Shown: in pieces, positions 11,847-55,172 of the stretch | Numbering within the stretch: the stretch's first letter is position 1 | How the letters are laid out: the number at the start of each line of letters is the position of its first letter | NCBI GenBank assembly: GCA_965248055.1 | Contig: CBDFIJ010000004.1 | Location: 2,688,001 to 2,752,000, forward strand | Length of the DNA: 64,000 nt | DNA from: Candidatus Multivoradales bacterium | GTDB lineage: Bacteria > Acidobacteriota > Thermoanaerobaculia > Multivoradales > JAHEKO01 | Reading direction: 5' to 3' | The notes under the pieces: generated by a model | What the model was told of the DNA's origin: nothing | What the model saw: the letters and a program-made list of their open reading frames with translations, nothing else | The model's database searches: none | Position numbers and translations under genes: made by a program

Positions 11847-13328
11847 TTGTCTATGACGATCAGGATTCACCACCGCCCCGAGGACCTAGAGGGTCTACAC
11901 CGGCTGGCTTTGCGGTTGATCAACGCCGATAGTCACGAGGACCTTCTCAACGCGGTTGCTGAAGAAGCGATGCGGATCCTGGTTGCCGATCGGGGTCTGC
12001 TACTGCTATCGCGCTCGGAGGGCGAAGATCCCCAGGTCGTTCGTTCGTGGGGGAAGCAATCCGGCAACCACGATGTCAGTAAAGCGGTCTTGGACCGGGT
12101 GATGAGTCACGGTGAACCGTTGTTGATCGAAGACGCGCTGGCGGACGAAAAACTTGCGATCCGCGAGAGTGTGCAGCGTTTGGAGATTCGTTCCGTTCTG
12201 GCGGCTCCGCTGCGTTTTGGTGGCGAGATCTGCGGTGCACTGTATCTGGAAACCACCCCTGATCTACGCATCTACGCTGATGAAGAGTTCGACATCTTTA
12301 ACCGCATTCTTGAACTGTCTTCCCGTGCTTTGGAGGCCAACACCAAGAAGTTATTGTTGGAACAAAGGAGCTCTCTTCTGGAGCGAGATCTTCGAGCCCG
12401 CTACCGGTTCCCCGGGATTGTCACCTCGCATGGCGCCATGCTCGCGGTATTGGAGACGCTGGGTAGCGTCGCAGCCACCAATCTGGCGATCCTGATTCAG
12501 GGCGAGAGCGGCACCGGCAAAGAACTGTTGGCGCGAGCGGTGTACGTCAACAGCCGCCGCAACGAATTGCCTTTCCAGGTCATCAACTGCGCTGCGATCG
12601 CCCCGACATTGATTGAGAGTGAGCTGTTCGGCCATGTCAAAGGGGCTTTTACCGGCGCCACCCAAGACAAGAAAGGTCTAATTGCCGAGGTCGACGGGGG
12701 AACTGTGTTTCTGGATGAGGTCGGCGAATTGCCGATCGAGTTGCAAAGCAAATTGTTGCGGACGTTACAGTTTGGCGAAGTGCAGAGGGTGGGCTCGGCG
12801 CGCGCAGAAACGGTAGACATTCGTTTCGTCGCGGCGACCAACAAGCGTCTAGATCAAGAGGTCGAGGCAAAACGTTTTCGCGAAGATTTGTATTTTCGCC
12901 TGAATGCCGTGGTGTTAGAAATCCCCCCTTTGCGTGATCGCCGCGAGGATATCTTGCTGTTATTCCAACATTTCCTGCGGCGCGAGTGCGAGGTGCAGGA
13001 GCGCGAGTTGCCCGAAGTGGCTGAACAAGTAAGAGTTGCATTGGCGGAGTTTTCTTGGCCGGGGAATGTCCGGCAATTGGAGAATGAGACTTTTCGCGCC
13101 TTGGCAATGGCCGGGCAAGAACGTCGGATCGAATTTCGCCATCTGTCGCGGCAACTCAGAGGTCATCGGGTTGAAGTAACTGCGCTGGAACCATTAGCCG
13201 AAGTCGAGCGCAAAGTGGTGCGAGAACATCTGCGTCGCGCGAACGGAAACAAATCACTGGCGGCCAGAACACTGGGTTTAAGTCGTGAAGGGTTGAGAAA
13301 GAAGCTAAACCGTTGGGAAAAGGTTTAG
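11847..13328 (+). CDS. GAF-domain sigma54-dependent Fis-family transcriptional activator
   Basis: N-terminal GAF (IRSVLAAPL...GALYL), GESGTGKE, ESELFGHVKGAFTGA, FREDLYFRL, WPGNVRQL and C-terminal HTH. Confidence 0.93.
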   Translation: MSMTIRIHHRPEDLEGLHRLALRLINADSHEDLLNAVAEEAMRILVADRGLLLLSRSEGEDPQVVRSWGKQSGNHDVSKAVLDRVMSHGEPLLIEDALADEKLAIRESVQRLEIRSVLAAPLRFGGEICGALYLETTPDLRIYADEEFDIFNRILELSSRALEANTKKLLLEQRSSLLERDLRARYRFPGIVTSHGAMLAVLETLGSVAATNLAILIQGESGTGKELLARAVYVNSRRNELPFQVINCAAIAPTLIESELFGHVKGAFTGATQDKKGLIAEVDGGTVFLDEVGELPIELQSKLLRTLQFGEVQRVGSARAETVDIRFVAATNKRLDQEVEAKRFREDLYFRLNAVVLEIPPLRDRREDILLLFQHFLRRECEVQERELPEVAEQVRVALAEFSWPGNVRQLENETFRALAMAGQERRIEFRHLSRQLRGHRVEVTALEPLAEVERKVVREHLRRANGNKSLAARTLGLSREGLRKKLNRWEKV

Positions 13329-13339
13329 GAGCGCCCAAT

Positions 13340-13442
13340 GTGCCTCTAAAGTGGGCGAGTCAGGGTGCCAACAATACGGACACTGCAGCTGAGAAGGGAT
13401 TCTTTGGTGACCACTTAGTTGGCATCCACGGTCTGTTGGCAA
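13340..13442. promoter_or_regulatory. Candidate enhancer (UAS) array of imperfect GTGCCAAC-N3-GTTGGCAC palindromes
   Basis: GTGCCTCT-aaa-GTGGGCGA (13340), GTGCCAAC-aat-ACGGACAC (13365), GTGACCAC-tta-GTTGGCAT (13407) and half-site GTTGGCAA (13435). They lie 115-215 bp upstream of the predicted +1 of a sigma54 promoter. Confidence 0.45.
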
Positions 13443-13528
13443 CTGCGGATTGGATCATTTGAGGTTGCAGTTCGTGTTTAAGTGCTTGTTGTACAGCGGT
13501 TTACCAATAGTCCAGGTTCGACTAGAAG

Positions 13529-13545
13529 TTGGCACAGCTAGTGCT
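13529..13545 (+). promoter_or_regulatory. sigma54 (-24/-12) promoter
   Basis: TTGGCACAGCTAGTGCT: GG-N10-GC, close to the YTGGCACG-N4-TTGCW consensus; intergenic. Confidence 0.75.
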
Positions 13546-13555
13546 CTTACAGAAG

Positions 13556-13688
13556 GGTGAAGATAACCGTCCTCGTGTTCGGCTGAGACGGTAGGAACTT
13601 CACGGTTAGTCTGGTTCCCCCCGCAATACAACTAGATTTTCCGTCCACTCCCCAAGAGACCCGGCTCCACGCCGGGTCTCTTTCTTTT
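13556..13688 (+). ncRNA. Putative sigma54-dependent small RNA, three stem-loops with C-rich single-stranded segments
   Basis: Bounded by the sigma54 promoter and an intrinsic terminator. Stems GTGAAG/CTTCAC plus ACCGT/ACGGT; AGTCTGGTT/AACTAGATT with loop CCCCCCGCAATAC; linker CCACTCCCC. No ORF in the track. Confidence 0.62.
13654..13688 (+). terminator. Rho-independent terminator
   Basis: Perfect 10-bp GC stem GAGACCCGGC-TCCAC-GCCGGGTCTC followed by TTTCTTTT. Confidence 0.88.
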
Positions 13689-13759
13689 ATGGCTTTCGCG
13701 AAGGGGTGTTTTCTTTCCCTGAGCAAGCCGCTACCGTTGATTTCAGGATCTAGCCCCAG

Positions 13760-14977
13760 TCAGCAAGATAATCCCAGGATCCGGATGGATGACACCGAAG
13801 TGCCTATGTCCATGGCTGTCTCACCTGGGGGGATTTCTAGCAAGCACGGAGCACTAGCGAACGCGGCCAAGTGATGCGAGCCGATCGGCACAGTGACACG
13901 GCTGCGTCCTCGATCATCGCTATGGGCTGGCAAGTAGCGGGTTTTCTCGCGGTGCGGGTAGATCGGGCTAGAGAGTTGCTGTTGTATGCGTACCTGGTCC
14001 CAGACGTCGTTATCGCCCTCCAGAGCTTTCAGCAGCGGCAGGACAAACACATGAAAACCGACGAGGACCGCTGCCGGGTTGCCAGGTAGGCCGATGGCCC
14101 ATTGCCGCTGACGCCGGGCAATCAAGATCGGTTTGCCGGGCTGCATCGCTACTTTGTGGTGGCTGATTGTGAAGCCGACTGAGGTCAACGCTTCCGGAAT
14201 CAGGTCGTAGCGACCCGCGGAGACGCCGCCGGTCGTGATCACTAAGTCCAAATCAGCGGTCTGGTCCAGCGAGCTGCGCAGAGTTTTCATTTGATCACCA
14301 ACCACGCCGAGGGCGACGGGTTCGATTCCCAGGCCATCAAGCATGCCGTGGAGCAGGGGAGTGTGGGAGTCAGCGATGGTGCCGGCTGTAAGTTCGATCG
14401 GAGCTGAACCGCTGGCTGTTACAACTTCGTTTCCGGTAATCAGTGTTCCGACTTTGGGTTTGGAAAATGCGCGAACTGTGGTCCGCCCTTCGCCGGCAGC
14501 CATGCTCAGATGAATCGGGTTCAGTCGGGTAGGTGAAGCAACCAGTGATTGCCCAGCGCTGTGGACTTCGGCTTGGCGACGAATGTGAGCGCCGCGAACG
14601 GTTGGCACTTGGATTGTCACTGTGGAATCATTGAGGAGAGTGGTCTGCTCTACGGGTACCACACGATCCGTGCCTTCGGGGAGCCAAGCTCCGGTCATGA
14701 TCGCCACCGCGCAACCGGACTCAACCACTTCTGCAAACGGAGCTCCGGCGGCAACTTCCCCGATGACCTTCAATTGCGCCCCTGGTTGGTGATCGCCGCG
14801 ATAGGCGTATCCATCCATTGCCGACACATCGGCTCTCGGGTAGTCCCAGTGCGCCTCAATTGGCGCCGCTAGGACCCTACCCAGGGCATCTTGAAGGGCA
14901 ACCTGATGGCATTCGGTTGCTGCAATATGCGGTTGGATTTGCGACCACACAAGGTGCGGTGTTGGAAGAGGTTCCAT
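13760..14977 (-). CDS. moeA: Molybdopterin molybdotransferase
   Basis: ALGRVLA, SAMDGYA, IMTGA, TGNEV, TTGGVSAG, QPGKP and GLPGNP motifs. Confidence 0.93.
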   Translation of the reverse strand: MEPLPTPHLVWSQIQPHIAATECHQVALQDALGRVLAAPIEAHWDYPRADVSAMDGYAYRGDHQPGAQLKVIGEVAAGAPFAEVVESGCAVAIMTGAWLPEGTDRVVPVEQTTLLNDSTVTIQVPTVRGAHIRRQAEVHSAGQSLVASPTRLNPIHLSMAAGEGRTTVRAFSKPKVGTLITGNEVVTASGSAPIELTAGTIADSHTPLLHGMLDGLGIEPVALGVVGDQMKTLRSSLDQTADLDLVITTGGVSAGRYDLIPEALTSVGFTISHHKVAMQPGKPILIARRQRQWAIGLPGNPAAVLVGFHVFVLPLLKALEGDNDVWDQVRIQQQLSSPIYPHREKTRYLPAHSDDRGRSRVTVPIGSHHLAAFASAPCLLEIPPGETAMDIGTSVSSIRILGLSC

Positions 14978-15027
14978 TGAGCACAGTCTGGTTTATTGCG
15001 ATGGTAGGATCAACCACTTTTTTCGCT

Positions 15028-15855
15028 ATGACTGCAGACCCCAATCGAAGTTCAACCGCCCATGCGATTCGTTTTGAATCGGAGCCAGAATTCAGGGTGT
15101 CTCTCGGACAAAGTGGACCACCTGAGATCCTCAGCGCGATCGAACGCATGGGCTTGACCGGAGTCCTGTCGGTGAGTCGTGGTGTGACGGTGAAAGAACT
15201 GACGGTCGAGGGCGGTGAATTGCTAAATGCTGCCTCGACCGATCTCCGTGACAGTTTGGGTTCTCACCTTGAAGACTCAGGGATTCTTGATGTTGAGACG
15301 TTGGAGAGTTTTGCCGACCCGGGCAAGGCAAGGTTGAAGCTCGGTGAGAGGTTGGTTGCGGCCGACGTACTGACCCCAAGCCAGATGCGGCGCGCGATTT
15401 GTGGCCAAATGGAATCGATCGTTCTCAGTCTATTTTCGTGGCCTGATGGAGAGGCCAGTTTTCGACCTGGGCCAGTCGAGAGCCGTTCGGGAGTCGGAGA
15501 TTTGGAGTTACGGCCCTTGATCTACCAAGGGATTCTCTCGATGACAGATCCAGGGCGGATCTTGGCCATTCTGGGTGGTCCCGAACGAATCCTACGACCG
15601 GTCCATCGACCGGAGGATTCGATTCGACTCAAACTGGAGACTGACGACTGGGAGTTCTTACGTTCGGTCAACGGCGATTTAACCATTGAAGAATTGGCTG
15701 CCTCGGGACCTTACATGTACCCCGACAACTTACGTCGGTTGTATGCTTTCGCGCTTTTGGGACTGTTGGAGGTGGGCGACAAGCCTGCGGCCAGCGGTGG
15801 TGGCTCCTTCAAGGTCAAAATTAGCCGTCCGGCTTCAGAGTCCTCGGTTGACTAG
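15028..15855 (+). CDS. DUF4388 (PatA-N-like) domain protein
   Basis: PEILSAI...LTGVLSV...GELLNAAS...LGxxL repeats...LFSWPDGEASF pattern. Start placed at ATG 15028. Confidence 0.7.
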   Translation: MTADPNRSSTAHAIRFESEPEFRVSLGQSGPPEILSAIERMGLTGVLSVSRGVTVKELTVEGGELLNAASTDLRDSLGSHLEDSGILDVETLESFADPGKARLKLGERLVAADVLTPSQMRRAICGQMESIVLSLFSWPDGEASFRPGPVESRSGVGDLELRPLIYQGILSMTDPGRILAILGGPERILRPVHRPEDSIRLKLETDDWEFLRSVNGDLTIEELAASGPYMYPDNLRRLYAFALLGLLEVGDKPAASGGGSFKVKISRPASESSVD

Positions 15856-55155: not shown

Positions 55156-55172
55156 TTGGCACGGTGCGTGCG
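55156..55172 (+). promoter_or_regulatory. Candidate sigma54 promoter
   Basis: TTGGCACGGTGCGTGCG: perfect -24 TTGGCACG and GG-N10-GC; intergenic. Confidence 0.62.

Follow-up and report, generated by a model that had tools for sequence, protein, structure and literature searches.

A predicted sigma-54-dependent small RNA gene downstream of a GAF-domain activator gene in a Multivoradales bacterium and its sister species

The intergenic region analyzed here (positions 13329-13759 of the window, as we term the whole 64,000-nt stretch of DNA under study) is 431 nt long and lies between the gene for a single-component enhancer-binding protein on the + strand and a convergent moeA gene on the - strand (Table 1). 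The Pfam matches of the activator comprise Sigma54_activat (2.6e-64), GAF (3.7e-13) and HTH_8 (1.8e-11), and no receiver domain is found among them. The protein falls below every NCBIfam equivalog cut-off, its best match being nifA (316.7 bits vs a cut-off of 528.85), and its best full-length matches come from Myxococcota MAGs, at 36-38% identity. The genome studied here (G000) carries rpoN on its main contig (C4:103700) and also possesses hfq, while csrA (PF02599) was not found in this genome, which is 97.7% complete. No ORF of at least 40 aa is present on the + strand from the promoter to the terminator described below. For comparison we used G001, the sole other species of the same genus compared, here called the sister species.

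Some further observations concern the neighborhood and the assembly. Divergently from moeA, a DUF4388 gene on the + strand probably starts at ATGGTAGGATCAACC, around positions 15010-15030 of the window (MVGST.FF, kept in the sister species), far later than the TTG at 14818 of the longest ORF, and its first codons overlap the 5' region of moeA on the opposite strand. A conserved block upstream of moeA proved to be the start of this DUF4388 gene. Contigs C1-C3 of the assembly (14.8-28.4 kb) have a G+C content of 39-43%, vs 57% for the main contig, and may represent contamination or a separate replicon; C2 contains a second match to the sigma-54 DNA-binding domain.

Table 1. Features of the candidate module and its flanking genes, with positions in the window.
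Feature	Position	Strand	Basis
GAF / sigma-54 AAA+ / HTH_8 enhancer-binding protein gene, 493 aa, single-component activator	11847-13328	+	Pfam
Candidate activator (UAS) sites TGCCAACA (13366-73), AGTTGGCA (13417-24) and TGTTGGCA (13434-41)	13366-13441		Repeats
Putative sigma-54 -24/-12 promoter, TTGGCAC-N5-GTGCT = TTGGCACAGCTAGTGCT; predicted +1 near 13556	13529-13545	+	Sequence
Predicted sRNA, ~130 nt	13556-13688	+	Folds; covariance-model match in G001
Hairpin 1, ACCGTC (13566-71) / GACGGT (13587-92), loop CUCGUGUUCGGCUGA	13566-13592	+	Fold, RNAalifold
Conserved core CGTGTTCGGCTGAGACGGTAGGAACTTC, 24/28 identical in G001	13574-13601	+	Local alignment
Hairpin 2, ACGG..AGTCTGGTT (13608-16) / AACTAGATT (13630-38)..CCGT	13602-13644	+	Fold
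C-rich linker CCACTCCCCAA (including CCACUCCCCAA), predicted single-stranded	13645-13655	+	Base-pair probability profile
Intrinsic terminator, 12-bp stem with 8 G-C pairs, U tail	13654-13688	+	Terminator scan
moeA (molybdopterin molybdotransferase), convergent neighbor	13760-14977	-	Pfam MoeA_N, MoCF_biosynth, MoeA_C

The GG (13531-32) and GC (13543-44) of the promoter motif show canonical spacing, confirming the claim of an earlier note on this DNA that a sigma-54 motif lies here on the + strand with no + strand gene after it. Both the core and the spacing are also kept in the sister species, where the motif (TTGGCACCACTCATGCA) has 12 of 17 bases identical, as counted by eye, and the cores read TGGCAC-N5-GTGC and TGGCAC-N5-ATGC, respectively. 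The promoter is located 202 nt from the activator stop codon in G000 and 252 nt in the sister species, with 43 and 44 nt, respectively, separating it from the conserved core, in spite of the divergence of the intervening sequence. The motif is not rare in itself, since TGGCACN5NTGC is found in 37 copies in G000, vs some 26 expected from a rough hand estimate based on uniform bases. Nonetheless, matches to TGGCA[CT]N5NTGC are enriched in intergenic DNA, with 20 of 55 falling in the 13.8% of the genome that a crude home-made gene caller (2786 genes, 86% coding) leaves as intergenic. Most of these 20 lie at most 150 nt from a same-strand gene start. Six without a called same-strand gene within 300 nt were examined, and only the one reported here leads into a strong terminator (-23.6 kcal/mol). 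In addition, a promoter and terminator scan of positions 13000-14100 detected no sigma-70-like promoter.

Elsewhere in the window, an intergenic sigma-54-type motif (TGGCACGGTGCGTGC) is found on the + strand at positions 55157-55171 (G000:C4:2743157), 149 nt upstream of a ~292-aa gene according to the crude gene calls. Outside the window, sigma-54-like motifs at C4:3103547 and C4:3211102 are each located 310-470 nt upstream of a 346-aa gene, and each is then followed by a common ~50-nt repeat (CTAGATCAAACACCTGTGAGACAG...), possibly reflecting a duplicated or mobile unit.

The candidate activator sites upstream of the promoter are copies of GTTGGC or its complement GCCAAC, three copies of which are likewise present in the sister species, 146-233 nt upstream of its predicted start. 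These hexamers occur in G000 at a genome-wide rate of 1.27 per kb and form 35 clusters of at least three copies within 100 nt, of which only the cluster at this locus has a sigma-54 motif at 400 nt or less. The spacer between repeats and promoter is AT-rich in both species, with a G+C fraction of 0.44 in G000 and 0.34 in the sister species, vs 0.57 for the genome. Repeats and AT-rich spacer are thus compatible with an enhancer architecture. Because the GTTGGC motif was picked after inspecting the sequences of both species, and because the arrangement of the sites differs between them, we only infer that these repeats are binding sites of the activator.

Folding of the + strand between positions 13556 and 13690, a check that the earlier note had put forward for 13556-13688, yields -51 kcal/mol (z = -4.57), with none of 200 shuffles performing as well, vs a z of -2.51 for the - strand of the same region. 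The sister species gives a z of -3.37 for the + strand vs -2.22 for the - strand. The structural elements proposed in the earlier note were all recovered exactly where it had placed them, including hairpin 2, with two G-U pairs that work on the + strand only, its C-rich loop, the linker and the U-tailed terminator. The loop of hairpin 2 is CCCCCCGCAATAC (13617-13629), the C-rich tract of which is also given as CCCCCCGCAAUAC, and it displays the motif CCCCCGCA. The terminator stem (13654-13682) is followed by TCTTTT and is reported on the + strand only. Hairpin 1 presents a more complex case. Its proposed stems are indeed present in G000, including an outer stem formed by GTGAAG (13557-62) and CTTCAC (13598-603), but this outer stem is not conserved in the sister species and competes with the conserved ACGG/CCGT extension of hairpin 2. 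The 3' arm ACGG of hairpin 1 is conserved, but it has a choice of two 5' partners, and the register of the hairpin, which differs between the two species, is accordingly uncertain.

The comparison with the sister species carries most of the weight of the present analysis. Around 17 kb surrounding the locus are syntenic between the two genomes, with the activator orthologue at 70% identity and MoeA at 47% identity in the same position, the convergent layout being kept. Given that MoeA is only 47% identical, neutral DNA would be expected to be scrambled between both species. The module is found in the same syntenic gap of the sister species, comprising promoter, core, a hairpin showing CCCCCGCA, linker and terminator. 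Its core block (CGTGTTTGGCTGGCACGGTAGGAACTCC) is the longest stretch of conservation (24 of 28 bases identical), and the long hairpin corresponding to hairpin 2 has a different stem sequence in which compensatory changes preserve all 13 pairs, four of which differ on both sides. G-U pairs compatible with the + strand only are found in this hairpin in both species, and the loop motif is again displayed. In a similar vein, the linker counterpart (CCACTGTCCCCCAA) again contains CCCCAA, and the terminator stem has been rebuilt through four two-sided changes while keeping its T run. When the two intergenic regions are aligned locally, the score is 43, vs 19.3 +/- 2.5 for shuffles (maximum 30, n = 300) and 17 for the reverse-complement control. 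The earlier note had counted a lack of conservation of promoter and stems in relatives as a refutation; in the sister species, the promoter, hairpin 2 and the terminator are conserved, with the outer stem of hairpin 1 as the exception.

A covariance model built from G000 alone retrieves the copy of the sister species at 39.3 bits. In the resulting alignment of the two sequences, which is fitted to the structure and model, 98.1% of the cells pair and 9 of 29 pairs are changed on both sides, a value that 2 of 500 shuffles reach. When the 3' partners are shifted by 1 to 3 columns, pairing falls to 34-47%. On the same alignment, RNAalifold recovers hairpin 1, hairpin 2 and the terminator, with both sides changed in 11 of 32 pairs. 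These covariation statistics are weak because only two sequences exist.

No Rfam 15 family matches the window at gathering scores over its 64,000 nt, in agreement with the earlier note, which had recognized no known family in the RNA. A search of positions 13250-13800 at E up to 10 returns six sub-threshold matches, with 11-21 bits vs cut-offs of 40-55, and the three for which alignments are displayed (AgrB, suhB and rnk_pseudo) owe most of their alignment to the terminator hairpin. A single copy of the element exists in the genome studied here, and no match to positions 13500-13700 is obtained by blastn in any of 40 relatives. The covariance model was also run on overlapping samples of 45 genomes from the family, 151 from the order and 151 from the class, where it matches only G000 and the sister species, with G002 among the family genomes that lack a match. 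Other hits to the model were rejected as homologues because they align on the terminator alone or nearly so, and the six outgroup hits obtained in the order and class searches lack both the sigma-54 motif (0/6) and the core motif (0/6). Scanning public genome contigs for the core pattern produced no match, and the two matches obtained in public metagenome contigs were dismissed, both lying within apparent coding sequence and having no model match. Homologues of the activator with ~50% identity are present in three genomes of other families (G036, G029 and G039), where neither synteny nor the RNA is found in the 10-15 kb around each and the covariance model scores at most 8.5 bits with filters off. 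In the genomes and contigs searched, the module hence appears to be restricted to the genus. A separate sigma-54-like motif (TGGCATGCATCCTGC) was noted on the - strand of G029 (C14, ~6057), some 790 nt upstream of the activator homologue and directed away from it; the sequence downstream of this motif is unrelated to the RNA of G000.

Taken as a whole, these results lead us to regard as reasonably probable that the locus encodes a genus-restricted, sigma-54-dependent and trans-acting sRNA of ~130 nt, the transcription of which is driven by the adjacent GAF-domain activator. We favor an sRNA gene over the other readings because all parts of the module recur, with compensatory changes, in a sister species that has diverged deeply. 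According to this proposal, RNA polymerase with sigma-54 would bind the -24/-12 element, and the enhancer-binding protein, probably bound to the GTTGGC repeats 115-190 nt upstream and probably sensing a small ligand through its GAF domain, would open the promoter. Transcription would then start near the predicted +1 and stop at the terminator, generating an RNA composed, in this order, of hairpin 1, the 28-nt core, hairpin 2 displaying CCCCCGCA, the UCCCCAA linker and a terminator with a U tail, a type to which Hfq binds. Such an RNA would act in trans by base pairing with the help of Hfq, via its C-rich tracts and/or the conserved core. Transcription, start site, Hfq dependence and mode of action are all put forward here from sequence, and the dependence on the adjacent activator is suggested by adjacency and by the repeated GTTGGC sites.

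Targets of the putative sRNA were predicted using duplex energies and motif counts on 2786 home-called translation-initiation regions of G000, and complementarity in the sister species was checked at the six candidates that were followed. Several long complementarities to the RNA are predicted in initiation regions of G000. For none of the six candidates, however, is the site retained in the sister species, or else no orthologue was found there. The ThiE/AroK-like gene has an orthologue without the site, the 181-aa and 216-aa genes do not retain theirs, and the motif does not lie at the start of the DEAD-box helicase in the sister species. No homologous 5' region was found there for the 732-aa exported protein, nor an orthologue of the CoA-transferase-like gene with the query used. 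The translational-repressor role advanced in the earlier note is therefore left without support from these predicted targets (0/6). Feedback on the starts of the activator or moeA was also rejected, both initiation regions being at the median predicted pairing energy.

The complement of the conserved loop motif (TGCGGGGG) occurs in 4 initiation regions, vs roughly 3 expected by our own estimate. Ribosome-binding sites in G000 are of the canonical AGGAG/GGAGG type, an enrichment that is partly circular because the choice of starts favored such sites. G-rich variants able to pair with the C-rich tracts are confined to a minority of genes, GGGGA being present in 79 of the 2786 start regions, and the C-rich tracts, if they are seeds, would address a subset of genes. 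Two false target matches to the C-rich loop were traced to a region outside the window (C4:3285300-3286220) where a gene 3' end (...CPKGI.LE.IARMNRDWVRG and stop) is duplicated, with ~100 nt nearly identical, and precedes two different ORFs. Also outside the window, a 29-nt stretch within a 231-aa ORF (C4:2654938-2654966) presents an antisense match to the core region of the RNA (24/28, 13 contiguous); it was not retained as a target and is probably due to chance, given its E of 0.17 within the genome.

Several other explanations can be envisaged for the conservation of the element. An unlikely one is that the structured region just belongs to the activator mRNA, as its long 3' UTR and its terminator, the sigma-54 motif being silent or fortuitous and any sRNA arising by processing. 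Since no terminator is detected by the scan from the activator stop codon (13328) up to position 13654, activator transcripts should indeed read into the element; the promoter motif, moreover, belongs to a class with many matches in the genome (37 to 55, depending on the pattern), and the available text on the cbrB-crcZ co-transcript describes its processing into a CrcZ-like RNA (PMC5113210). Yet a silent motif sits poorly with a GG/GC core, a spacing and a distance to the conserved core that are all kept in the sister species when the surrounding intergenic sequence has diverged, and with the presence of GTTGGC repeats and an AT-rich spacer upstream of it in both species. We consider very unlikely that the RNA acts in cis on moeA, be it by convergent sigma-54 transcription or by pairing with a read-through moeA 3' UTR. 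Pure antisense action needs neither conserved loops nor compensatory changes in + strand stems, the strong + strand terminator should halt most transcription short of moeA, and the 9 nt that match the 5' region of moeA in G000 are not retained in the sister species (longest match 7 nt). In favor of such action stand a convergent layout that is kept in both species, a terminator that lies ~18 nt from the moeA stop codon in the sister species, and the absence of a T run after the terminator hairpin on the - strand, owing to which transcripts from moeA may read across the RNA gene.

A comparably low probability is assigned to a sponge or decoy that would titrate a protein through the 28-nt conserved core instead of pairing with mRNAs. 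The longest conserved stretch is in fact the core, with its AGGAAC, rather than the C-rich tracts, and no conserved mRNA target was found among the candidates followed. Such a sponge is, however, left without any candidate partner protein, and the RNA contains only one to three GGA-type motifs, whereas known sponges carry many such repeats. With CsrA not found at a genome completeness of 97.7%, the sponge suggested in the earlier note, understood as a CsrA sponge, receives no support. An Hfq-type pairing RNA fits better than a CsrA sponge because hfq is present and csrA was not found, and the locus combines with the hfq gene a U-tailed terminator and conserved tracts predicted to be single-stranded. 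Finally, it is extremely improbable that the transcript encodes a very small protein. The sister species does have a 20-codon GTG-initiated frame after AGGAAC, and a frame through TCCACT..CCCCAA is readable in both species, but in G000 the shared frame has no ATG, GTG or TTG start and crosses the terminator, no ORF is conserved, and the changes in the stems are compensatory at the RNA level.

Returning to the reading favored here, that of a trans-acting sRNA under the control of the adjacent activator, a broader version of it may be outlined. The activator would then be a GAF one-component sensor having a riboregulator as its only direct output, and the RNA, with two C-rich seeds and the 28-nt core, would found a new lineage-specific family. 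Since its convergent arrangement with moeA is conserved, the RNA might link a metabolic signal to the synthesis of the molybdenum cofactor. As a whole, we hold this broader version to be decidedly unlikely.

The closest parallels to the locus are provided by systems in which an RNA gene follows the gene of a sigma-54 activator. The earlier note regarded this type of module as undescribed, a view that is overturned by Pxr, CrcZ and the ncRNAs of Desulfovibrio, which present the same layout in the available portions of the respective reports (PMC5568312, PMC5113210, PMC4641369). The locus analyzed here displays the features expected of such an arrangement: a conserved promoter motif, rpoN together with an adjacent enhancer-binding protein gene, a predicted non-coding RNA and a terminator before the next gene. 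A text search of the literature on sigma-54 sRNAs in Acidobacteria brought up no relevant paper. In more general terms, sigma-54 and an activator also drive a short, terminator-ended regulatory RNA in the case of Qrr and GlmY/GlmZ, as far as the consulted sections of the sources report (PMC10162802, PMC3045617). These RNAs differ from the one proposed here in belonging to Rfam families without a match to it, and in their activators and gene contexts. Qrr, for its part, is Hfq-dependent.

According to the accessible text of the sigma-54 regulome study of Desulfovibrio vulgaris Hildenborough, the regulome includes an "ncRNA downstream of DVU0653" and an "ncRNA downstream of DVU0679", and the single-component activator DVU2359 controls an ncRNA (PMC4641369). 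The likeness here resides in a neighboring ncRNA being, in that text, the only regulon member assigned to these activators, a single-component one among them; the lineage is a different one, and the likeness is one of layout. In Pseudomonas, crcZ is found downstream of cbrB in all the genomes analyzed in the part of the study available, where it is described as having its own CbrB- and RpoN-dependent promoter, as being also co-transcribed with cbrB, and as giving rise to an Hfq-associated RNA (PMC5113210). The shared trait, on that account, is an sRNA gene directly downstream of the gene of its own sigma-54 activator. CbrB, however, is a two-component response regulator, in contrast to the single-component activator of G000, and CrcZ has no sequence or Rfam similarity to the G000 RNA. 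CrcZ is also a considerably longer RNA, whose A-rich motifs serve to titrate Hfq/Crc.

Pxr of Myxococcus xanthus has a similar organization. In the available text its gene follows nla19/pxrR, which encodes a sigma-54 activator, at a distance of ~260 nt; a sigma-54 promoter is predicted for it, and the RNA forms three stem-loops (PMC5568312, PMC5684412). Pxr is described there as exclusive to the myxobacteria, which lack hfq (PMC5684412, PMC5568312). As far as these descriptions go, both loci consist of an activator gene, a gap of ~200-260 nt with a predicted sigma-54 promoter and an RNA of ~110-130 nt that ends before the next gene. Both RNAs have three stem-loops, counting the terminator hairpin in the case of G000, and Pxr is C-rich too, judging from its published probe sequence. 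On the other hand, the activator of G000 has a GAF input, whereas nla19 is described as being of the response-regulator type, and hfq is present in G000 and absent from the myxobacteria. Judged by these traits, the G000 RNA is probably not Pxr, and no Pxr-named Rfam match appears at E up to 10, with the inclusion of a Pxr model in Rfam 15 being unconfirmed.

In the light of these comparisons, the element shared by G000 and its sister species is a new sequence family of a design already known from other bacteria, and no principle is changed by it, because that design has been published in three other groups. If transcribed, the RNA would give initial access to riboregulation in an uncultured lineage of which little is known and would provide a natural reporter for the signal sensed by the GAF domain. 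It would also add to Pxr, CrcZ and the Desulfovibrio ncRNAs a further instance in which an activator gene directly precedes the gene of its own sigma-54-driven RNA, here with a single-component GAF sensor in place of a two-component regulator.
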